DNA of 32,000 bases from Bacteroidetes bacterium UBA7662. GTDB lineage: Bacteria; Bacteroidota; Bacteroidia; UBA7662. Numbering within the stretch: position 1 is the first letter of the stretch; each line of letters starts with the position of its first letter. The notes beneath the pieces were generated by a model, which saw only the letters and a program-made list of their open reading frames with translations, had not been told where the DNA came from and did no database searches. Position numbers and translations under genes: made by a program. The stretch lies in assembly GCA_002483345.1 (NCBI GenBank), contig DLHS01000009.1, positions 24,060 to 56,059 on the forward strand. The letters run 5' to 3'. This document shows positions 4,873 through 25,216 of this stretch, piece after piece.

Positions 4873-6354
4873 TCAGAGGCTTTTCCTGTCTACCTTGCCC
4901 GTAGCTGTTTTGGGGATTTCTGCCACAAGCTCAAAGTGTTTGGGCACCTTAAACTTAGCCATCCCTCCTATGCAAAAGCCCTTGAGTTCGTCGGTCGTAA
5001 TTTTTTGTCCCGGACGGAGAACTACGAAGGCCTTGCCGGTTTCTCCCCATTTTTCATCGGGCACCCCTACAACCACTACCTCACTGACTGCCGGATGGGT
5101 TAGCAGGTATTTTTCAATTTCTGCCGGGTAAATATTCTCCCCGCCACTGATGAACATATTTTTGATACGATCGACCACATACAGATACCCTTCCGCATCT
5201 CTCCGAAGCATATCGCCTGTATGAAACCAGCCATCGACTATGGTTTTGGACGTGGCTTCCGGGTGTCGCCAATAACCAGGTGTAACCACATCTCCCTTCA
5301 GGCAGAACTCGCCGATACCTTCTCCCCTTACCTCCTGCCCTTTTTCATCCACCAGTTTTGTTTCCAGATAAAAATTCGGGAAGCCGATAGATCCTATTTT
5401 CCGGATCGCATCTTCATGTTGGAGAGAGGTCACATTGGGTCCCACTTCTGTAAGCCCGTAACCCTGCCGGATGGGCACCCCTTTCTGTTTCCAGTTTTCG
5501 ATTACAGGTATAGGCAGGGCCTCTCCCCCGACAATAAAATAACGCAGCGCGGAAAGGTTTACCTGATCAAAAGCCTTGGTCTCCGCCATGAGCCTGATCA
5601 TGGTTGGCACGACCATAAACAAGCTGATTTTTTCACTTTCGAGTAATTCCATCACCTTTTCTGCTTCGAATTGGGCCATCAGTACAACCGTGGCCCCAAA
5701 ATGCAAAAAGGGAGTGGTAAGTACATTCCAGCCACCGGTATGAAAAGGCGGCATGCACATCAGGGTACGGTCGGCACCGGTTACCTGCAACCGCAGGGCG
5801 GTGTTCAGGCTGTTCCATACCAGCATTTTATGGGTATACAAGGCCCCTTTGGGGAAACCCGTGGTGCCACTGGTGTATAGAATGAATACCGGATCATCTT
5901 CATGCAAAACTGCTACCGTGTAGACATCCGGATATGCCTCTTCGGTTGCAATGTGATTTATCTGTGCCACGGTTCTTTGGGGAATACCTGCCGAAAGCGG
6001 CGCATCGTCGAGGGTGGTCTCAAATTTCGGAGAGAAAATGATGAGGGCCGGATCGGCATCTCCCAGCAGATAATCTATTTCACGGGGAGCCAGTCGGTAG
6101 TTGAGCGGAACAAGTATAATTCCCGTTTTTTGAGCAGCACAGAAGAGCATCAGATATTCGGCACAAAATTCTGCCAGAACCACCACCCGGTCTCCTTTCT
6201 GAAGTCCCTGGGCCGCAAACATATGAGCCAGTCTGGCTGCTGCGGCATCAAGCTCCTGATAGGTAAGTTCTCTCCCGGTTTGAGCTTCCTTTACAGCGAT
6301 CTGACCTGGTGTATACTTACGCCAGCGTGCCGACCAGTCGAATTCGGTAATCAT
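4873..6354 (-). CDS. AMP-dependent (adenylate-forming) acyl-CoA synthetase/ligase
   Basis: 493 aa with the AMP-binding signature YTSGTTGFPKGA, plus GYGLTE, HTGD and the terminal PKTATGKVDRK lysine loop. Its start overlaps the stop of the symporter gene (ATGA at 6351-6354). Confidence 0.9.
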   Translation of the reverse strand: MITEFDWSARWRKYTPGQIAVKEAQTGRELTYQELDAAAARLAHMFAAQGLQKGDRVVVLAEFCAEYLMLFCAAQKTGIILVPLNYRLAPREIDYLLGDADPALIIFSPKFETTLDDAPLSAGIPQRTVAQINHIATEEAYPDVYTVAVLHEDDPVFILYTSGTTGFPKGALYTHKMLVWNSLNTALRLQVTGADRTLMCMPPFHTGGWNVLTTPFLHFGATVVLMAQFEAEKVMELLESEKISLFMVVPTMIRLMAETKAFDQVNLSALRYFIVGGEALPIPVIENWKQKGVPIRQGYGLTEVGPNVTSLQHEDAIRKIGSIGFPNFYLETKLVDEKGQEVRGEGIGEFCLKGDVVTPGYWRHPEATSKTIVDGWFHTGDMLRRDAEGYLYVVDRIKNMFISGGENIYPAEIEKYLLTHPAVSEVVVVGVPDEKWGETGKAFVVLRPGQKITTDELKGFCIGGMAKFKVPKHFELVAEIPKTATGKVDRKSL

Positions 6355-7829
6355 GACTTTTTATCTTTTTTCAAAAGGTACAAAATGCCACCGGTCAACA
6401 GGCTGGCAGTGATGGCCAAAGATGCCGGAATAGCAGGGTTTTTTACTGCTGCCTGCATCCAGGGGGTTAGTTCAGCGTAGTACACAACAAAATGCACCAC
6501 CAACGCCATGACCGATGCCGGCGCCACCACCCGCAGACCGGCCTGGGGTAAAAACATGCCAAACAAAACGGGCACAAAGGCAGCTGCGAAATAGGCATAC
6601 ACCCCGTTTTGCGCAAAAATTGCCACACTCAGGTTAGGTGCAACCAACTGCTGGTAGCTGAAATAACCACTGACTGCTGCCAGCAGGATGATTACAAGGC
6701 GATTAAGTTGCATTCGTTTTTTATCGGCCAGTCCGCGTACGCCTGATGAAAGCGGGGGCAACAAATCATTCGTAATGGTGGTACTCAGCGACTGAATAAG
6801 CCCTTCAAGGGTGGAGATACCTGCTGAAATAAGCCCCAATACCACCACCAGGCCTATCCAAACAGGAAATTCCTGTACAACGTAGGCTGACAAAATAGCA
6901 TCTGTCCGGATTGCCATTCCACCCATCTGTAAATCAGGAAACTGCAAGCGGGCGTACAAACCTGTGAAGACAACGGAAAAAAAGATGAGCTCAACGAGGA
7001 CTGCCACCGTCAGAAAACGGTTTACATCCTTTTCATCTTTCAGCAAAAGGGCTTTGGTAATGATGTGCGGCTGGCAAACGATGGCGATACCTATCATAAA
7101 CTGGGCAAAGCCTATCTCAAACCAATCCCGGAACAATAAACTGCCCGGATTGGTGACCTCCACCAATACCGGATCGATGGCTTTCAGCTTGGCTATAAAA
7201 CCATGCACGCCGGCACTGAAATGCTCATAACCCGACCCAAGCAAAAGAAAGGCCACTATCAGCATGAGTATTGCCTGTATCATATTGGTATAGACCATAG
7301 AATTGGCACCGCCAAACATCATATACCCGAATACAAAAACAATGATGCCAAGCAGTACCCAGGACGGGTCGGCATCAAGCGCCTGTGATAATATCTGGGT
7401 TAAACCAACATGAATGAGTACAATAAAAGTGATGAGCAACAAAGCCAGAAAAGCAAAAAACAAGCCGTAACCCTGACTTTTGTACCGGCTGCTCATCCAT
7501 TGCGCCAGACTCAGGGCCTTTACCGTATGGCCATATCGCCTGAACCCTTTGCTGAGTATTACGAGAGAACTCAGCGCTGCCACCGGCATAACAATGCCAT
7601 AACTGATTACGCCACTGAGGCCATACATGGCAATAAAACCCGGATTGATGATAAAGGTAGCTGCACTTGTCATACTCGCCGCAAGTGCCAGACCGACGGC
7701 AACCGGTGAAAAATGCCGGCTGCCTACCGCATAATCTGACAGGCTTTTGATGCGCAGGGCTGCCCGTACAACTATCCAAAGCGTTACGGCCATATAGACC
7801 AGCAAGAGTATCCAGGTGGCTGTTACCAT
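6351..7829 (-). CDS. Sodium:solute symporter (SSS) family transporter
   Basis: 492 aa with about 13 hydrophobic helices. The N-terminal pattern is typical of SSS proteins (DYAVGSRHFSPVAVGLALAASMTSAATFIINPG). Substrate cannot be inferred. Confidence 0.85.
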   Translation of the reverse strand: MVTATWILLLVYMAVTLWIVVRAALRIKSLSDYAVGSRHFSPVAVGLALAASMTSAATFIINPGFIAMYGLSGVISYGIVMPVAALSSLVILSKGFRRYGHTVKALSLAQWMSSRYKSQGYGLFFAFLALLLITFIVLIHVGLTQILSQALDADPSWVLLGIIVFVFGYMMFGGANSMVYTNMIQAILMLIVAFLLLGSGYEHFSAGVHGFIAKLKAIDPVLVEVTNPGSLLFRDWFEIGFAQFMIGIAIVCQPHIITKALLLKDEKDVNRFLTVAVLVELIFFSVVFTGLYARLQFPDLQMGGMAIRTDAILSAYVVQEFPVWIGLVVVLGLISAGISTLEGLIQSLSTTITNDLLPPLSSGVRGLADKKRMQLNRLVIILLAAVSGYFSYQQLVAPNLSVAIFAQNGVYAYFAAAFVPVLFGMFLPQAGLRVVAPASVMALVVHFVVYYAELTPWMQAAVKNPAIPASLAITASLLTGGILYLLKKDKKS

Positions 7830-16486: not shown

Positions 16487-17440
16487 CTAAAATACAGCAG
16501 AAGCTATCTGCCTGGTGGCTTCACTTTTACCCATGGTATAGAAATGGAGAACGGGTGCCCCCTTGGCTTTGAGCTCTTTGCACTGTGCTATGGCCCATTC
16601 TATCCCTATTTCCTTCACCTGTTTATCATCTTTGGCTTTCTCAACAGCATCAGAAAGCGCTTCGGGTATATCGATGTGAAACACCTTCGGTAATACAGTC
16701 AGCTGTTTTTTAGTGGCAATGGGTTTGATGCCCGGAATAATAGGTACCTCCATACCAGCTTTTCGGCATTTATCTACAAAATCAAAATATGCCTTGTTAT
16801 CGAAAAACATCTGGGTGGTGATGAACTCAGCCCCTGAATCCACTTTTTTCTTCAACCACAACATATCCGATTTCATATTGGGCGCATCCTGATGCTTTTC
16901 AGGATAACCTGCCACACCGATGCAAAAATCAGTATGAACCGGATTAACCAGGTCTTCATCCTCATATTTACCGGCATTCATACGCTTTACCTGATCCAGT
17001 AACTCAAGCGCGTTGGTATTTCCATCCAGCTCCGGAACAAACACAGTTTCGTGTTTCAGATTATCACCCCGCAGCACCAATACATTGTCGATGCCCAGAA
17101 AGTGGAGGTCAATGAGGGCATTTTCCGTTTCTTCGCGGTTAAAACCACCACAAATCAGGTGTGGAACAGCATCAACCTTAAATTTATTCATGATAGCCGC
17201 ACAGATAGCAACTGTACCCGGACGTTTACGGGTCGTGATACGCCGGAAAGTGCCATCCGGGAGGGGTTTCATGATAAACTCTTCCCGGTGATACGTCACA
17301 TCAATAAAGGGCGGATTGAACTCCATGAGGGGCTCAATACCGGCGTAAATCTGGTTGATATCCTGCCCCTTGAGCGGGGGGAGTATCTCGAAAGAGAAGA
17401 GGGTGTCTTTAGCGGTGGATATGTGGTCAGTGATTTTCAT
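16487..17440 (-). CDS. metF: 5,10-methylenetetrahydrofolate reductase
   Basis: 317 aa. The N-terminus LFSFEILPPLKG, the motifs DVTYHREE, HLICGG and GYPEKH, and the overall length match bacterial MetF. It sits in a metH context behind a SAM riboswitch. Confidence 0.92.
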   Translation of the reverse strand: MKITDHISTAKDTLFSFEILPPLKGQDINQIYAGIEPLMEFNPPFIDVTYHREEFIMKPLPDGTFRRITTRKRPGTVAICAAIMNKFKVDAVPHLICGGFNREETENALIDLHFLGIDNVLVLRGDNLKHETVFVPELDGNTNALELLDQVKRMNAGKYEDEDLVNPVHTDFCIGVAGYPEKHQDAPNMKSDMLWLKKKVDSGAEFITTQMFFDNKAYFDFVDKCRKAGMEVPIIPGIKPIATKKQLTVLPKVFHIDIPEALSDAVEKAKDDKQVKEIGIEWAIAQCKELKAKGAPVLHFYTMGKSEATRQIASAVF

Positions 17441-17454
17441 ATTTTTGGGGTTAA

Positions 17455-17525
17455 CACGGGGGGCACGGAGGGCACGGAGCAGAGGTTACGGAGGGCACGG
17501 AGCGGAGGTTACGGAGGACACGGAG
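17455..17525. repeat. Tandem array of CACGGAGG-type units (23-nt period, about 2.7 copies); left arm of the cassette
   Basis: ACGGAG occurs at 17465, 17474, 17488, 17497, 17511 and 17520, giving spacings of 9, 14, 9, 14, 9. The repeat unit is ACGGAGGGCACGGAGCRGAGGTT. The array ends 7 nt before the stop codon of the GxxExxY ORF. Confidence 0.9.
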
Positions 17526-17532
17526 TTGCCTT

Positions 17533-17913
17533 TTAAAGCACAATTCTGATGACACCTTGTTTTAGCAGCTCACAGTTAAAATTGATGAGCAACCCTACTT
17601 TGTGACGCGATAGTTTCAGATAAGTCATCAATTGCGCCTTGAACAGATTGTGTATGTGTTCTGCAGCTTTCAGTTCTATCAGAATTTTACCTTCAACCAG
17701 AAAATCTGCCCGGTAGCCACAATCAAGTCTTTCACCTTTGTATAACATAGGGATAGGCACCTCAACCCTGAAGCCCAGATTACGCTCTGTCAGTTCTTTC
17801 ATCAAAGCGACTTTGTATGCCGACTCCAGCAAACCTGGCCCGAGATTCCGGTGGACTTCAAGTGCTGCACTCCAGATTTTATCTGTTATATCACCGTGTA
17901 TAAGGGTTGTCAT
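17533..17913 (-). CDS. GxxExxY protein (PD-(D/E)XK nuclease-fold superfamily)
   Basis: 126 aa. It has the eponymous motif GLLESAY and the core RADFLVEGKILIELKA (D...ExK). From memory this matches the family known as TIGR04256 / Pfam PDDEXK_3. Confidence 0.85.
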   Translation of the reverse strand: MTTLIHGDITDKIWSAALEVHRNLGPGLLESAYKVALMKELTERNLGFRVEVPIPMLYKGERLDCGYRADFLVEGKILIELKAAEHIHNLFKAQLMTYLKLSRHKVGLLINFNCELLKQGVIRIVL

Positions 17914-18032
17914 TGCCTCTGTTTACTTCATGCCTTCTCCTTTCAAAACTCTGAATTTTATTTATTTGGTTTAAAGCTATTTTTATCAATTAACATTATA
18001 TAATACAATCGCTGCAAGTCATAGGCACAATG

Positions 18033-18073
18033 CGCTCCGAAACCCCCGCTCCGTGTCCTCCGTGCCCTCCGTG
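18033..18073. repeat. Inverted copy of the CACGGAGG-type array; right arm of the cassette
   Basis: CTCCGTG occurs at 18049, 18058 and 18067. The reverse complement of 18058-18073 equals 17464-17479 (16/16). The reverse complement of 18049-18063 equals 17511-17525 (15/15). The reverse complement of 18041-18055 matches 17496-17510 at 14/15. Confidence 0.9.
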
Positions 18074-18074
18074 T

Positions 18075-21000
18075 TTAATAATTCAGTGCAGGTGCCAGCC
18101 ATTTCTCCGCTTCTTTTAAAGTAACACCACGCCTTACCGCATAATCTGCCACCTGGTCCTTGCCTATTTTACCTACCCCGAAGTATTTGGCATCAGGATG
18201 GGCGAGATAGTAGCCACTAACAGCAGCTGCAGGCCACATGGCATAATGATCGGTAAGCACAAGGCCAATACGTTCTTCCACCTTCAGCACCTTCCAGAGG
18301 GTTCCCTTGTCGAGGTGATCGGGACAAGCCGGATACCCGGGGGCAGGGCGTATACCTCTGTATTTCTCCGCTATCAGGTCATCATTACTGAGGCGTTCAC
18401 TGGGCTCATAGCCCCAATATTCTCTGCGGACGCGTTCATGGAGGTGTTCGGCAAAGGCTTCCGCCAAACGATCGGCCAACGACTTCAGCAGGATGGCGTT
18501 GTAGTCATCGTGCTTGGCTTCGAATGCTTTCGCCCTTTCCTCGGCACCAAAAATACCGATGGCAAACAGACCGAAATAGTCCTGAAAACCGGTTTCTTCC
18601 GGGGCAATAAAATCAGACAGGGCCAGGTTGGGGAGGCCTGTCGTTTTTTGGGATTGTTGTCGGAGGGTGAGGAATTTTGCTACTTCCTCTGCCGCTCCTC
18701 CCAGGGTAGGGGTCGGGGATGGTGTCCGGATGACAATATCATCCCCCGCTGCATTGGCTTCAAACAGGCCAAACACCGCACGGGCATCAAGCCATTGTTC
18801 ACGGATGATGGTTTTCAGCATCTGCTGGGCCTCCTCAAACAACTTGGTAGCTGTCTCTCCAACCAGGGGGTCGTGCAGAATATCGGGGTATTTGCCATGC
18901 AATTCCCAGGCCTGGAAGAACGGTGTCCAATCTATGTAATCAGCTATCGTCTGTAAAGGGTACTGCCTGAATTCGTGTACCCCCGGCTGTTGCGGTACGC
19001 TCAGATCTGCCGGATCCCAGTTGATGGGAAAACAGTTGTTTCTGGCTTCCTCAATTGAAAGCAATACCTTTTCGCGACCGCGGCTGAGATAACCTTCTCT
19101 TAACTTATCGTAATCGGTTTTGGTATTGGCCGCAAAACCATCCCGCTGCTCCGGACTCAGCAAGCTGCTCACAACGGGTACTGAACGACTCGCATCCAGC
19201 ACATGCACCACGGTGCCACTGAATACGGGCGCAATTTTAACGGCTGTATGTGCCCGGGAGGTGGTTGCTCCACCTATCAGAAGTGGCTTTTTAATGCCCA
19301 AACGTTCCATTTCAGAAGCCACAAACACCATTTCATCGAGTGAAGGTGTTATCAGACCTGACAGGCCTATCACATCTACTTCATGATGAAGGGCTGCTTC
19401 GAGTATTTTATCGCAACTGACCATCACCCCCAGGTCAACCACATCATAATTATTGCATTGTAGTACGACACCAACAATGTTCTTACCTATGTCGTGTACA
19501 TCGCCCTTTACCGTAGCCATCAGGATTTTACCCTTGGCCTGGCGGTTCTGACCCGGATTGGCCAGTTTTTCTGCTTCCAGATAGGGCATCAGATAAGCAA
19601 CCGCCTTTTTCATGACGCGGGCGCTCTTCACGACCTGAGGCAGGAACATTTTACCGGCACCAAACAAATCGCCGACAACGTTCATACCGGCCATCAGCGG
19701 CCCTTCAATTACCTGTAACGGCTTATCGAATTCGTGGCGGGCTTCTTCCACATCCACATCAATATATTCATCTATTCCCTTGACGAGGGCATGGGTGAGA
19801 CGCTCCTGAACGGGTGCCAGGCGCCAGCTTTCATCTTTAGCCACCGCTTCCTTGCCGGGACCACCTTTGTATTGTTCAGCAAGTTGAATTAAACGCTCCG
19901 TAGCATCGGGACGGCGGTTAAAAAGTACATCCTCCACATGCAAAAGAAGCTCTTTGTCGATTTCCTCGTACACTTCGATCTGACCGGCATTGACAATCCC
20001 CATGTCCATACCTGCCTGAATGGCATGGTACAGAAAAGCGGCATGCATGGCTTCACGCACCTTGTCGTTGCCCCGGAAAGAGAAGGAGATATTGCTCACC
20101 CCGCCACTGACTTTCACGCCCGGCAGGTTCTCTTTGATCCATTTAGTGGCCTTGATGAAGTCGATGGCATAGTTATTATGTTCTTCTATACCCGTGGCGA
20201 CTGTAAGGATATTCGGGTCAAAAATGATATCCTCGGCAGGGAAACCAACTTCTTTGGTAAGAATATCATAGGCCCGCTGACAGATTTCGATGCGACGCTC
20301 GTAGCTATCGGCCTGGCCCTGTTCATCAAATGCCATGACAATGACAGCTGCACCATAGGCGAGTACCTGGTGAGCATAGTAGCGGAAACGCTCCTCCCCC
20401 TCTTTCATGGAGATAGAGTTGACAATAGCCTTTCCCTGCACGCATTTCAGACCTGCTTCGATGACACTCCATTTGGAAGAGTCGATCATCACCGGAACAC
20501 GGGCAATGTCGGGTTCGGCGGCAATCAGATTGAGAAAGCGGGTCATGGCTGCTTCTGAGTCGAGCATACCTTCGTCAAAATTCACGTCAATGACCTGAGC
20601 ACCGCTTTCAACCTGCTGCCGGGCGACTTCCACCGCGGCATCGAATTTTTCTTCCTTGATAAGTCTGGCGAACATGCGGGAGCCGGTAACGTTGGTCCGC
20701 TCGCCTACATTCACAAAATTGGTGGCTTTGGTGATGCTCACCGGCTCCAGGCCACTCAGATGAAGTACAGACTCCAGTTCCGGCAAGGTGCGCGGTACAT
20801 GCAATGCTGCTTCGGCGGCTATCTCGCGGATGTGATCGGGTGAGGTGCCACAACAACCGCCTATGATATTGACAAAGCTGTTGTCCAGAAAATCCTTGAT
20901 CTGCGCACGCATCATGGCAGGCGATTCGTCGTATTCTCCGAAGGCGTTCGGTAAGCCGGCATTCGGGTGGGCAGAGATACGGTATTTACTGGCTTTCGAC

Positions 21001-21776
21001 AATGATTGCAGGTGCGGGCGCATCTGTTTGGCTCCCAACGCGCAGTTTAAACCAATGCTGAGCAACGGCAGGTGCGACATGGAGTACAGAAATGCCTCTA
21101 CCGTCTGTCCTGAGAGGGTACGGCCACTGTTGTCGGTAATGGTACCGCTGACCATAATGGGCAGGGGTTGCTGCGACCGGTCGCGGAAATATCTATCAAT
21201 GGCATACAACGCCGCCTTGGCATTGAGGGTATCAAAAATTGTTTCAACCAGCAGCAAATCCACCCCTCCGTCTACCAATCCCTGCACCTGTTCGTAATAG
21301 GCTTCGACCAGTTCATCAAAGCTGATACTCCGGAAGCCCGGATTATTTACATCAGGGCTGATGCTGGCTGTTTTATTGGTGGGACCGATGGCACCTGCCA
21401 CAAAACGGGGTTTGTCCGGATGCAAAGCCGTGAAATCTGCTGCTACTTTTTTGGCTATGCGGGCTGATTCCAGGTTCAACTCATAACTCAGGGCCTCCAT
21501 GTGGTAATCTCCCATGGAAACGCGCTGCGCATTGAAGGTATTGGTTTCTGCAATGTCTGCGCCGGCCTCAAAATAGGCCCGGTGGATATTTTCTATGATT
21601 TGTGGCTGGGTAAGAGAAAGGAGTTCGTTATTGCCTTTGAGATCAGAGGCCCAGTCTTTGAAACGCTCACCCCGGTAATCAGCCTCTGAGAGTTTATAAT
21701 TCTGAATTTGCGTACCCATGGCGCCGTCCAGGACCAGGATGCGTTTTTTGAGTTCTTGTTGTATATCGTATTGCAT
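18075..21776 (-). CDS. metH: Cobalamin-dependent methionine synthase
   Basis: About 1233 aa with all four modules. These are the Hcy-binding N-terminus (LDGAMGT, GGCCGT), the pterin-binding domain, the B12-binding DxHxxG motif (GDVHDIGKN), and the C-terminal AdoMet reactivation domain. The track ORF start at 21788 is a TTG, so I use the ATG at 21774-21776 ([11 protein letters not shown]). Confidence 0.95.
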
Positions 21777-21802
21777 AAAAAAAGCCAAACGTTTCGTTTA
21801 GC
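21777..21802 (-). terminator. Putative riboswitch expression-platform terminator abutting the metH start codon
   Basis: The minus strand reads GCUAAACG-AAA-CGUUUGGC, an 8-bp stem with one G-U pair. U7 follows, and then the AUG of metH comes directly after. Confidence 0.45.
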
Positions 21803-21867: not shown

Positions 21868-21997
21868 TGCTCATCTCCTGCCTCAGTTATTTGTTAGTGG
21901 CAGCGGAATTGGCACCAGACCACCGTGAGGCAAGTGTCTCACGCTGCGGTTGCCAGGACTTCGTAGGGCCGTTCCCTCCGTCCTTCTGGATAAGCTT
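21868..21997 (-). promoter_or_regulatory. SAM-I (S-box) riboswitch aptamer
   Basis: The minus strand reads AGCUUAUCCAGAAGGACGGAGGGAACGGCCCUACGAAGUCCUGGCAACC...GGUGCCAAUUCCGCUGCC...GGCAGGAGAUGAGC. This matches the conserved SAM-I core almost position for position: CUUAUC.AGA..GG..GAGGGA..GGCCC.A.GAA..CC.GCAACC, then GGUGCCAAUUCC, then AGAUGAG closing P1. Confidence 0.9.
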
Positions 21998-23153: not shown

Positions 23154-24197
23154 ATGACAACAAAATATACACTTGGAGCTCCATTGAGCTTTGTTTCCAT
23201 AGTCCTGGCATTTTTAACAGCCTGTACTTCCGGGCCGGGCGAAACCGCCCCTTCTTTTAAATTACCCTACGAAGGGCATGTAGCCTTCCATACCCTGCCG
23301 CAGGCTCATTACAAAAGGACCCTGAAAGACACCTTGTTTTACCACTTCAAAGACTATTCAACCTATCGTATACTCCCGAAGGTCAGAGAACTGGGCCAAC
23401 AAATGCCCGAAAGATTTTTTGAGGTAGATAAACGTTTGTATTACCTCCATCAACAAGGTGTTTTTGATTTTGGAAGCCGCAGGTTTCACCCTTTCAGTAA
23501 TAAAAAAATAGCAAGTATCGTATCTCACAGCCAGTCCATTGTACAGTTTAATGGCCAAATAATATTCCAGCTGACATATGCCGATGAACCTGTCATCTCC
23601 GACCAACTGATCCATGCCAGTTTCCTTCAAAAACCCGGATTGGCAGCCTTCCGCTTACCTCTGATGGAAGACAGTCTGAAACTGACCTTTTTACCCGTTA
23701 GCAGGCAACCCGAAAAGGAAATACCCGCCAATGTTTTCCCGGGCTCTTCTTTTTATGTAAGTATGAACGACAGCAGCCTCCTCATCTCCTACAAGTCTTA
23801 CCCCCATATCCAAAGCTGGCAAAGTCAGGATACAGCCGCCCGGCTGATTACCCGCTTTAAACCCCTGACCGGGTTTGGACAACGTCCCTTTCCATTCGGA
23901 GAAACATCCATTTCCAAAAGGAAGGTCTATTTTAAAGGGCAGCCGTTTTACTTCGAAGCCTATCCGGAGGGACAAAAGATTTACAGACTCCTTAAAACCA
24001 GAAAAAAACTTTACTTGTGTGTTGCAGATTTGGAAGCAGGTGTTTCCCGTTACATCCACATACCGGCAGATCATGGGGTTGTTACACTTCTTAAAGCGGG
24101 CAACCATGTATTTTACATTAAAGTAAAGTTTGAAAAGGCACATCGGCTGGTTCAGCATCGTCCGGTAGAAGAGCTGATAGATTTGTACGAACGATGA
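23154..24197 (+). CDS. Orphan lipoprotein, no recognisable family
   Basis: 347 aa with the lipobox LAFLTACTSG and a Tyr/Phe/Lys-rich, beta-rich composition. I could not recognise any motif. Confidence 0.6.
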   Translation: MTTKYTLGAPLSFVSIVLAFLTACTSGPGETAPSFKLPYEGHVAFHTLPQAHYKRTLKDTLFYHFKDYSTYRILPKVRELGQQMPERFFEVDKRLYYLHQQGVFDFGSRRFHPFSNKKIASIVSHSQSIVQFNGQIIFQLTYADEPVISDQLIHASFLQKPGLAAFRLPLMEDSLKLTFLPVSRQPEKEIPANVFPGSSFYVSMNDSSLLISYKSYPHIQSWQSQDTAARLITRFKPLTGFGQRPFPFGETSISKRKVYFKGQPFYFEAYPEGQKIYRLLKTRKKLYLCVADLEAGVSRYIHIPADHGVVTLLKAGNHVFYIKVKFEKAHRLVQHRPVEELIDLYER

Positions 24198-24356
24198 CCC
24201 GCATACAATAGCAGCCTTATCAGACCATCACAGCTAGTCCCGGCATGCTGCGTTATCCACCGACGCCTGCAGGTGCAGCCGACGGCACCAAGCGTCCGGC
24301 TGTTACCGGTCAACAGATTTTCCGCTCACCCCCACTCTCCCGCCAGACACAGTCAA

Positions 24357-24426
24357 TCCACTCTCCACTCCACACTCTCCACTCTCCACTCTCCACTCTC
24401 CACTCTCCACTCTCCACTCTCCACTC
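24357..24426. repeat. Heptanucleotide microsatellite (TCCACTC)n
   Basis: Seven perfect consecutive units span 24378-24426. Three further units lie upstream, two perfect (24357, 24364) and one variant CACACTC (24371). The array sits inside a 78-nt tract with no G on the plus strand (24357-24434) and ends in C6. Confidence 0.95.
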
Positions 24427-24487: not shown

Positions 24488-25216
24488 ATGCAACGCCACC
24501 TCGACCACTGGCATAGCCCCTCCCTGAACAAGGATATGCCCATTGCCTCTTATGGCCATTATGGATTTGCTCTTCTGCTCGTCCCGACTGCAGCAGCAGA
24601 TTATCTTGAATACGAACGTTTTCAACTCCTCGACAGTCTGCAGGAGCACCTCAACGGAGGCAAAATAAGGGTCTTTTCGGTCGACAGCATCAACAATGAA
24701 AGCTGGCTCAACAACCAGATGCATCCCGGAAACAAAGCCGAACGACACGATCAGTGGAACAATTATATCTTTCAGGAAGTGATTCCCTACATAAAAAAGG
24801 CAACCTCGGCCGAAACACCCATCGTGGTTGCCGGTGCTTCATTCGGGGCATTGCACAGCATGAACCTTTTTTTACGCCGGCCTGATCTGATTAATGGGGT
24901 GATAGCCATGAGCGGTGTTTATAACCTGATGGAATACACCAAAGGATTCTACAACGACAAAGTATACTTCAACAGCCCTTCTCATTACATCCCGAATCTG
25001 GAAGACCACCACCTGCTGGAAACCATCCGGGCTGGCCGGATCATCGTATCCACCGGAAGCGGGGCCTATGAAGATCCGGGGGCTTCCCGCGATTTCGGAG
25101 GTGTGCTCAACAGCAAAAATATTCCACACGAACTGAGTATATGGGGACAGGAATGGACCCATGATTGGCCTACCTGGCGGGAAATGTTGCCATTTTTTAT
25201 CCGTGAACGCTTCTGA
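24488..25216 (+). CDS. Esterase-family alpha/beta hydrolase (putative esterase type)
   Basis: 242 aa with the nucleophile motif GASFGA (GxSxG) and distal Asp/His candidates (EDP..., THDWPTW). The overall layout matches small esterase D / putative-esterase proteins. Confidence 0.75.
   Translation: MQRHLDHWHSPSLNKDMPIASYGHYGFALLLVPTAAADYLEYERFQLLDSLQEHLNGGKIRVFSVDSINNESWLNNQMHPGNKAERHDQWNNYIFQEVIPYIKKATSAETPIVVAGASFGALHSMNLFLRRPDLINGVIAMSGVYNLMEYTKGFYNDKVYFNSPSHYIPNLEDHHLLETIRAGRIIVSTGSGAYEDPGASRDFGGVLNSKNIPHELSIWGQEWTHDWPTWREMLPFFIRERF

Follow-up and report, generated by a model that had tools for sequence, protein, structure and literature searches.

The GxxExxY proteins are an orphan family named after a sequence motif. 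In Bacteroidetes bacterium UBA7662, a gene of this family lies between metH and metF, two genes of a methionine operon, in a 32,000-nt stretch of contig DLHS01000009.1 that was analysed as a whole (the window). The gene is enclosed by two inverted repeat arms, and gene and arms together form an insertion in the operon. The same combination is found at unrelated gene junctions in many phyla, and hairpins made of such arms without a gene are present in many near-identical copies in a cultured bacterium. Together they look like a nuclease-plus-repeat mobile system that is undescribed in the literature searched. The complete statement, namely that GxxExxY nucleases and arrays of heptamers form a partnership similar to that of REP doublets (REPINs) and REP-associated tyrosine transposases (RAYTs), is given a probability of about 0.5. 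The architecture and the evolutionary history, taken by themselves, are very probably correct.

In the favoured explanation, the metH-metF spacer would be the resident copy of a widespread unit, a minimal PD-(D/E)XK nuclease gene between two inverted arm modules. Each module would consist of TT(C/A)AC followed by three heptamers specific to the element (C-R-Y-N-R-A-G; here CACGGAG). Modules placed head-to-head around a loop of 20-150 nt would form gene-less hairpins, which would multiply in genomes and insert into one another. The heptamer arrays may be the recognition sites of the GxxExxY nuclease, which would probably be dimeric and would bind or cut the arrays on DNA in a structure- or sequence-specific way, thereby making the hairpins and its own cassette spread and turn over. 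Since no target duplication is seen, mobilisation would not involve staggered target cuts. Cassettes would come to rest, in sense orientation, where co-directional housekeeping genes leave a short gap and transcripts reading through it could express them. In the lineage of the window, the unit would have entered a tight metH-metF junction long ago and been inherited vertically since. Its arms would now evolve freely, with slippage of units, accumulation of solo arms and occasional loss of one arm. Purifying selection maintains the nuclease gene, and this suggests that it still works in trans or is of benefit to the host. We infer a nuclease that recognises the heptamers and mobilises the elements as the most economical mechanism.

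The spacer in the window comprises 634 nt (17441-18074), between the metH stop codon TAA at 18077-18075 and the metF start codon ATG at 17440-17438. Its sole sizeable open reading frame (ORF) is that of the GxxExxY protein. The features of the locus are as follows.

16487..17440, minus strand: metF (methylenetetrahydrofolate reductase, MTHFR), the host gene downstream, assigned from its ORF and Pfam
17441..17450, minus strand: residual native spacer CCCCAAAAAT before the metF ATG, compared with the outgroup junction TAA-8 nt-ATG
17451..17532, minus strand: array of CTCCGTG heptamers on the 3' side, which reads as some three 3' arms in tandem
17533..17913, minus strand: GxxExxY / PDDEXK_3 gene of 126 aa, with GLLESAY at residues 27-33 and invariant E40, D70, E80 and K82
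17914..18030, minus strand: AT-rich leader between the 5' arm and the ORF, with the clade-conserved motif GTGTT[A/T]AT...AAATAAA
18031..18078, minus strand: 5' arm (in RNA sense), with a terminal TTAAA that contains the metH stop TAA (18077-18075)
18048-18031, minus strand: 18-nt extension of the 5' arm, which also matches the 23-nt unit of the other side
18073-18049, minus strand: heptamer part of the 5' arm, CACGGAG three times with a 9-nt period
18075..21788, minus strand: metH (cobalamin-dependent methionine synthase, five Pfam domains), its stop codon within the arm end
21868..21996, minus strand: S-adenosylmethionine (SAM-I) riboswitch upstream of metH, 70.4 bits against a cut-off of 44.4

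An initial annotation of the window, made from its letters alone, had placed the genes, the spacer, the repeats and the TTAA sites at coordinates that all hold on re-checking. It had also called the operon riboswitch-controlled, and the SAM-I match listed above agrees with this.

The inverted arms (17453-17497 and 18031-18075) are 45 nt long and 87% complementary, and the perfect inverted matches of 16 and 15 nt that had been described between them are exact. With up to two mismatches, CACGGAGGNCACGGAG has six matches in the 32 kb, all within the two arms, against 0.05 expected. Tandem Repeats Finder reports a repeat at 17465-17525 with a period of 23, 2.7 copies and 94% matches. The 23-nt tandem unit of the initial annotation is therefore present as a repeat, but the basic unit of the arms is the 7-nt CACGGAG and not the 23-mer. 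The tandem 3' arms read ...CCTCCGTAACC / ...CCCTCCGTAACC / ...CCCCCGTGTTAA(CC). Each of them terminates in GT(G/A)(T)TAACC, and the last (17451-17479) is the partner of the 5' arm heptamers. TTAA occurs at 17451-17454 and at 18075-18078. Pairing of the arms on RNA, which had been proposed earlier, is indeed predicted for the window: the fold of the spacer pairs the arms, with a minimum free energy of -211.9 kcal/mol (z -6.2), and the arm-arm duplex alone is predicted at -90 kcal/mol (z -8.3).

Evidence that the spacer was inserted is provided by related genomes in which the junction is empty. The outgroup L217 (74% MetF identity) lacks the cassette and reads metH-TAA-TATACGTT-ATG-metF, with a gap of 8 nt. 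Two further contigs, L213 and L214, encode the same MetF protein; L213 has the cassette and L214 does not. In L214, metH and metF overlap (ATGA) with no trace of an arm, and its metF is 98% identical in nucleotides to that of the filled L213. The metH-metF spacer is an insertion, not native sequence, as the initial annotation had inferred, and the empty sites that it proposed to look for among relatives exist as the 8-nt gap and as the overlap. Because the flanks of L214 are 93-98% identical to those of L213, and because it is nested among filled lineages, its empty junction is most simply a clean secondary loss. A simple excision footprint was considered and rejected for L214, since no single clean deletion in L213 would yield its junction AATTAC-AATCC-ATG.

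The metH-metF junction is also where all of the window protein's closest homologues (81% and 67% identity) are located, and copies reached through MetF relatives of 88-91% identity are there too. This junction is filled in all relatives examined that have 87-93% MetF identity, with the exception of L214; the nearest named MetF relative is a Sphingobacteriaceae metagenome-assembled genome (MAG). The cassette in this Bacteroidota clade is old and vertically inherited. The GxxExxY ORF is under strong purifying selection, with a ratio of nonsynonymous to synonymous substitution rates (dN/dS) of 0.04-0.10 where synonymous sites are unsaturated, and the arms are the fastest-evolving part of the locus. 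For instance, strains with an identical protein carry two, three or four upstream TTCACGGAG units, relatives have solo 3' arms in tandem, two or three of them, and the 5' arm has been lost in L213. Predicted arm pairing is strong in L130 (z -7.6) and L216 (z -5.8). It is no better than in shuffled sequence in L125, L126 and L213 (z -0.9, -0.5 and +0.4), in which the ORF and the operon are intact. Between L125 and L213 the ORF is somewhat more similar than its flanks: the proportion of synonymous differences (pS) is 0.22 compared with 0.51 for metF, and nucleotide identity is 0.95 compared with about 0.89. As evidence for recent horizontal transfer within the clade, sliding-window identity and pS are suggestive at most, and the former gives no clear signal.

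In L215 (4461-4799), the GxxExxY protein is called as 112 aa owing to a one-base insertion (CTTTTTCAAAG, compared with CTTTTCAAAG in L216). Either the gene has only recently become a pseudogene in this strain, or the assembly is wrong here.

The arms characterise the whole protein family and not this clade alone. A metagenome scan seeded only by an alignment of GxxExxY proteins gave 80 loci, 72 of them with enough flanking sequence. Inverted repeats surround the ORF in 60 of the 72 (83%), well above shuffled controls. In 54 of these 60 the arms have the same heptamer skeleton, TT(C/A)AC and then three C-R-Y-N-R-A-G heptamers with a period of 8-9 nt; the other six are close variants. Examples of the heptamer are CACGGAG, CGCAGAG, CACGAAG, CACAGAG, CATGAAG and CGCAAAG. 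The strict arm pattern has 350 matches in the fetched loci and one in shuffles. Exactly three units are present in 313 of 337 arms, with TTnAC at the outer end.

Arm pairs in the F>R orientation fall into two groups by spacing: 97 have loops shorter than 150 nt, and 54 are 300-800 nt apart. All but one of the 54 contain GxxExxY. Longer F>R pairs enclose ordinary host genes. No other small cargo and no transposase recurs beside the arms, in a comparison that included no search aimed at the four-helix-bundle family. In 73-77% of cases the ORF is co-oriented with its neighbours.

The junctions filled elsewhere have nothing to do with methionine metabolism. In Verrucomicrobiota, cassettes are found at the purS|purQ|purL and gatA junctions. 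Two cultured bacteria provide further examples, Sphingomonas parapaucimobilis with fabD|GxxExxY|fabG and Bernardetia with ade|GxxExxY|manC, and in both the gene is annotated only as 'GxxExxY protein'. A Terrimicrobiaceae MAG (L003) has two cassettes in one pur operon, at 6040-6520 and 7190-7360. The one in purS|GxxExxY|purQ has a divergent arm type (CACTAA units). The other, after purQ, is decayed, and the last 20 or so codons of its ORF are left between arms of the CACGGAG type.

Hairpins with the same arms are found in at least eight phyla. The arm motif of the window was scanned against one genome per species (596 Gb) and matched at least 120 loci. In a database of this size about 1,100 chance matches are estimated under uniform composition, so that single matches mean little. 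Among the 120 matches listed, 47 have a partner arm 20-300 nt away, in every case with ACGGAG 5' and CTCCGT 3', and six have a GxxExxY gene, or a decayed one, adjoining the arm. The hosts among the matches listed are Acidobacteriota, Planctomycetota, Verrucomicrobiota, Gemmatimonadota, Pseudomonadota (Alpha-, Beta- and Deltaproteobacteria), Bacteroidota, Spirochaetota and Chloroflexota.

A more detailed picture of the gene-less hairpins is given by the cultured Gemmatirosa kalamazoonensis KBS708, from whose 1.1-Mb replicon (NZ_CP007129.1) four 50-kb samples were taken. These 200 kb contain 25 arms, and shuffled sequences contain none; the density is uneven, with 11, 13, 0 and 1 arms per sample. 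There are three heptamer types (CGCGGAG, CGCAGAG and CAC[A/G]GAG), each with its own end motif. Each type of hairpin pairs only with itself, and copies of the same type are near-identical, including their spacers. Hairpins are also nested concentrically, as [A[B[C..C']B']A'] at L223 12296-12556 and as [A[B..B']A'] at L223 45290-45532. A GxxExxY gene (L222 23735-24166) has a complete type-B hairpin on each side (region 23600-24261). Young copies are perfectly complementary, so the hairpin can form. Near-identical copies and nesting are typical of elements whose multiplication takes place on DNA and whose preferred targets are hairpin loops. In the window, similar events have probably left their record in the tandem solo 3' arms and in the extension of the 5' arm. 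The initial annotation had suspected a mobile, multi-copy family, and this is what the data describe: the same ORF and arms at unrelated junctions in many phyla, and gene-less hairpins that are multi-copy and nested in an isolate genome.

The window protein belongs to the GxxExxY family without ambiguity, in agreement with the nuclease-like ORF of 126 aa originally described. It matches PF13366 (PDDEXK_3) with E 1.2e-38 and 132.5 bits (cut-off 22), and TIGR04256 (GxxExxY) with E 1.5e-40 and 138.2 bits (cut-off 35). The GxxExxY motif (here G27-LLES-A-Y33) and the catalytic-type residues E40, D70, E80 and K82 are invariant in 30 diverse sequences, and so are Q94, Y98 and N111-F112. An AlphaFold2 model (mean pLDDT 95.2) has a minimal alpha-alpha-beta4-alpha-beta PD-(D/E)XK core. 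In Foldseek searches of the PDB the best match is the Cas4 protein SSO0001 (probability 0.99-1.0, TM 0.55). Further matches include lambda exonuclease, EndA, the nuclease domain of DrdV, tRNA-splicing endonucleases and I-Bth0305I. All of these fold matches are weak (E at least 5e-3), indicating that there is no close solved relative, and a sequence search of the window protein against solved structures gave no match. Judged from its model and conserved residues, the protein is a predicted minimal PD-(D/E)XK nuclease and looks active.

The family comprises 16,989 clusters at 50% identity (E at most 1e-3). Its top-scoring representatives include tandem two-domain fusions of 260-295 aa (P0241-P0254 and others), and such fusions suggest that proteins with a single domain may function as dimers. 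In some single-domain ORFs the reading frame continues into the 3' arm, which gives tails such as ...SETSAPSAPLR (P0111) and ...ETPRSLRSRR (P0047).

An origin in defence systems or phages was considered and rejected. The window protein has no match in PADLOC and none in PHROG at E at most 0.001, where the sole match is marginal (E 0.079). Pattern search and tblastn detected no relatives in IMG/VR, and 8 of 72,556 plasmids, mostly megaplasmids, carry one. One survey, the only one that turned up, lists the function of PF13366 as 'unknown, multiple transfers' (PMC3424549). In the literature covered by the search, one paper mentions a GxxExxY domain in passing. The arm sequences are absent from all texts searched, and no published description of the system was found there.

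Three properties of the arms bear on how the elements move and on what they conserve. One is target duplication. The initial annotation had suggested that the flanking TTAA might be such a duplication, but in 154 elements direct repeats of 2-6 nt at the flanks are as frequent as in a permuted control. TTAA lies inside the conserved palindromic end of the arms, TT(C/A)AC...GT(G/T)AA, and the suggestion is rejected.

Another property is the RNA stem. Mismatches between the arms of F>R cassettes show no excess of sense-strand wobble, with 61 G·U against 87 A·C, and there is no register-specific covariation between the arms. The spacers between heptamers (1-3 nt) keep their length in 95% of comparisons and are identical in 24%, close to the chance estimate for purine-only spacers. 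At the gathering threshold, Rfam has no family for the spacer in the window and none in 20 loci. An Rfam scan by E-value of eight hairpin loci gave chance matches to miRNA hairpins only, and none of 20 GxxExxY loci has an rRNA match nearby.

The last property is the homogeneity of the heptamers. Identity at unit positions 2-5 is 0.93/0.98/0.68/0.92, whether partners, non-partners or units within an arm are compared; between elements it is 0.56/0.92/0.44/0.67. Each element thus contains six homogeneous copies of its own heptamer, three per orientation. Because partners are no more alike than non-partners, this homogeneity points to repeated recognition sites or to concerted slippage, and not to a compensatory stem. 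Pairing as such is not what older copies conserve.

Several observations weigh against the favoured explanation. A PD-(D/E)XK hydrolase cannot rejoin DNA by itself, so mobilisation would need host repair or replication, and we know of no such mechanism for hairpin repeats. The ORF is still constrained in L125 and L213, where the arms have decayed, and the selected function of the protein would thus be independent of its own flanking arms. Among short hairpin loops, one of 54 contains a GxxExxY remnant, and that one is a full ORF; loops without remnants led to the rejection of the idea that gene-less hairpins are simply decayed cassettes. In 12 of 59 cassettes the arms are R>F, with TTCAC next to the ORF, which is a poor fit to a simple transposon with defined outer ends. 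Four of these 12 are a single orthologous insertion (L165, L201, L209 and L212) at the junction between the large subunit and the B12-binding subunit of a methylmalonyl-CoA-mutase-like enzyme, with all arms turned outward and TTAA/TTTCA next to the ORF. A transposon whose outer ends are fixed is a poorer match for such R>F cassettes than a gene lying between recognition modules. In L003, two arm types flank the two cassettes of one genome. The sampled loci are biased, having been picked by arm pattern or by protein, and one cassette copy is visible in the 32-kb window. The co-location of protein and heptamers, seen at the level of sequence, could reflect a shared insertion preference.

Some of these points are accounted for if the hairpins are independent REP- or MITE-like repeats (MITEs are miniature inverted-repeat transposable elements) that are moved by another enzyme or by replication slippage, with GxxExxY as a passenger (say, a nuclease of repair or defence, or a restriction-like one) that only tends to settle inside or next to them. 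There are more hairpins than cassettes, and remnants of the gene are missing from the hairpin loops. Selection on the ORF persists where the arms have decayed, the number of arm units varies among strains with identical protein, a sign of slippage, and joining activity is absent from the PD-(D/E)XK hydrolases, as is known of the superfamily. A passenger would not, however, be expected as the sole recurrent cargo, present in 53 of 54 long F>R pairs, nor would arms be expected at 83% of independently sampled GxxExxY genes. The searches of PADLOC, PHROG (E at most 0.001), IMG/VR and plasmids (8 of 72,556) give little sign of a defence role, and no transposase that could move the repeats recurs beside the arms. 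This explanation is considered unlikely.

Less likely still is that the unit acts on RNA, an idea of the initial annotation, which compared it with rRNA intervening sequences excised by RNase III. The arms would pair on the metH-metF transcript and be cut by RNase III, or by GxxExxY as an RNA endonuclease, releasing the ORF mRNA and either uncoupling the metH stop and the metF start or bringing them next to each other again. The strong predicted pairing in the window, L130 and L216 agrees with this, as do the metH stop at the base of the stem, the metF ATG 10 nt beyond it, the co-orientation of the ORF with its neighbours and the tRNA-splicing endonucleases among the weak fold matches. With F>R arms and with R>F arms alike the ORF remains inside a stem; this is compatible with an RNA model but not with a transposon that has defined ends. 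Of the comparison with intervening sequences, the predicted pairing of the window arms has stood; the remainder is weakened by the lack of wobble excess and of covariation. Spacer complementarity is near its chance estimate, partner and non-partner identities are equal, and pairing has been lost in L125, L126 and L213 with ORF and operon intact. There is no Rfam family, none of the 20 loci is near rRNA, and nested multi-copy hairpins point to a process on DNA.

A free-standing homing endonuclease specific for the metH-metF junction, which would cut empty alleles and have the cassette copied in by repair, is improbable. Filled and empty alleles do coexist in strains that are 98% identical in metF (L213 and L214), the ORF of L125 and L213 is more similar than its flanks (pS 0.22 against 0.51), and the weak fold matches include a homing endonuclease of the PD-(D/E)XK class, I-Bth0305I. 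Yet the same arms are found at many unrelated junctions (met, pur, fab, gatA, ade, mutase), gene-less nested hairpins are left without an explanation, the empty allele is nested in a filled clade as expected of loss rather than non-invasion, and sliding-window identity gives no clear transfer signal. That the spacer is a native, non-mobile regulatory part of the methionine operon can practically be dismissed. Its position is kept in all relatives examined with 87-93% MetF identity except L214, but tight empty junctions exist in the outgroup and in one sister strain, and other phyla have an identical architecture at junctions of pur, fab, gatA, ade and mutase genes.

Among known systems, the REPIN-RAYT partnership (PMC3116915, PMC3337134, PMC5581495) is the nearest analogue of the proposed nuclease-repeat partnership, although its defining features, an HUH/Y1 enzyme and self-palindromic REPs, are lacking here. 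In both cases pairs of short inverted repeats form hairpins, which are non-autonomous and present in many near-identical copies per genome (here in G. kalamazoonensis). Both have an enzyme gene flanked by inverted repeats (the window, 60 of 72 loci, Gemmatirosa) that is inherited vertically for long periods under constraint, and neither shows target duplication. In contrast to RAYTs, which are HUH/Y1 (IS200/IS605-like) transposases, the enzyme here is a 126-aa PD-(D/E)XK nuclease, and its mobilisation of the repeats is what we infer. REPs are self-palindromic with a GTAG or CGTC tag (PMC3733652), whereas the present arm consists of three direct heptamers after TTnAC and is not self-palindromic. 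The arm skeleton is also common across phyla, and the enzyme gene is often multi-copy and inside the hairpin loop.

Intervening sequences of 23S rRNA with small ORFs, such as those of Coxiella or Leptospira with S23p (PMC4990558), likewise have a small ORF of unknown role between complementary flanks in a host transcript and behave as selfish insertions. They differ in occupying an rRNA helix and not an operon junction in mRNA (none of 20 sampled loci is near rRNA); the stem described here is without covariation support, and its pairing is lost in relatives. MITEs and Correia-type elements are non-autonomous, have terminal inverted repeats and are sometimes targets of RNase III (PMC3184786). 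The hairpins resemble them in length (about 100-200 bp), terminal inverted repeats, intergenic position, copy number and co-transcription with neighbours. Unlike them, the hairpins lack a target-site duplication, have internally repetitive arms (3 x 7 nt) and are partnered with a nuclease instead of a DDE transposase. Free-standing PD-(D/E)XK homing endonuclease genes (e.g. I-Bth0305I, PDB 3r3p) also show presence and absence at a fixed site in close strains, but the cassettes have conserved flanking arms of their own, gene-less derivatives and many unrelated insertion sites.

Another unit of a related kind lies within metH itself. In several relatives MetH is about 1450 aa long and has a 212-aa in-frame insert in its activation domain (L124 4628-5263). 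The insert carries a DUF559 domain (a Vsr-like PD-(D/E)XK endonuclease) and has a GC-rich palindromic motif on both sides (CCCCTCTaCAGAGGAGAGGGG / CCCCTCTCCAGAGGAAAGAGG). It is absent from L125, whose GxxExxY protein is identical, and from metH of the window. Here, too, palindromic ends enclose a small nuclease, but the unit is a different one; it is polymorphic between close strains.

The initial guess that this structured insertion is selfish was right. There is a fair chance that the class is mechanistically new. More doubtful is the broader proposal of a new class of mobile hairpin repeats, spanning phyla and served by GxxExxY proteins as its dedicated enzymes, which would use neither DDE nor HUH chemistry, would leave no duplication and would favour hairpin loops and operon junctions. 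It may also be that the stem at the metH stop and metF start enables ribosomes or RNA processing to get across the insertion, so that metH and metF stay coupled. If the nuclease does mobilise the repeats, the pair would be a second counterpart to REPIN-RAYT with a different mechanism, and DNA might possibly be moved in a new way. A function would then be available for about 17,000 clusters at 50% identity that are annotated only by motif, and a large population of unannotated intergenic palindromes in soil phyla would be explained. In any case, an orphan family becomes a testable system, with an enzyme, its cognate DNA sites and a cultured host in G. kalamazoonensis KBS708. For genome annotation, common long spacers inside core operons (met, pur, fab, mutase) can be identified as insertions, and C-terminal extensions of GxxExxY ORFs that arise by read-through can be flagged as translated arms.

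Some minor features of the window remain to be described. A promoter and terminator scan of the metH-metF spacer, which did not cover Bacteroidota promoters, found no terminator and one weak sigma-70-like match in the leader (18022-17995) that is not above chance. A mini-ORF of two codons (ATG AAG TAA, 17931-17923, minus strand) follows AAAGGAGAAGG and ends 9 nt upstream of the GxxExxY start; among relatives it is conserved in L123 only. Outside the operon, a near-perfect tandem repeat, TCCACTC x 10 with 93% matches, occupies 24357-24426, between the plus-strand ORFs 23154-24197 and 24488-25216, with a C/T-rich stretch on either side.

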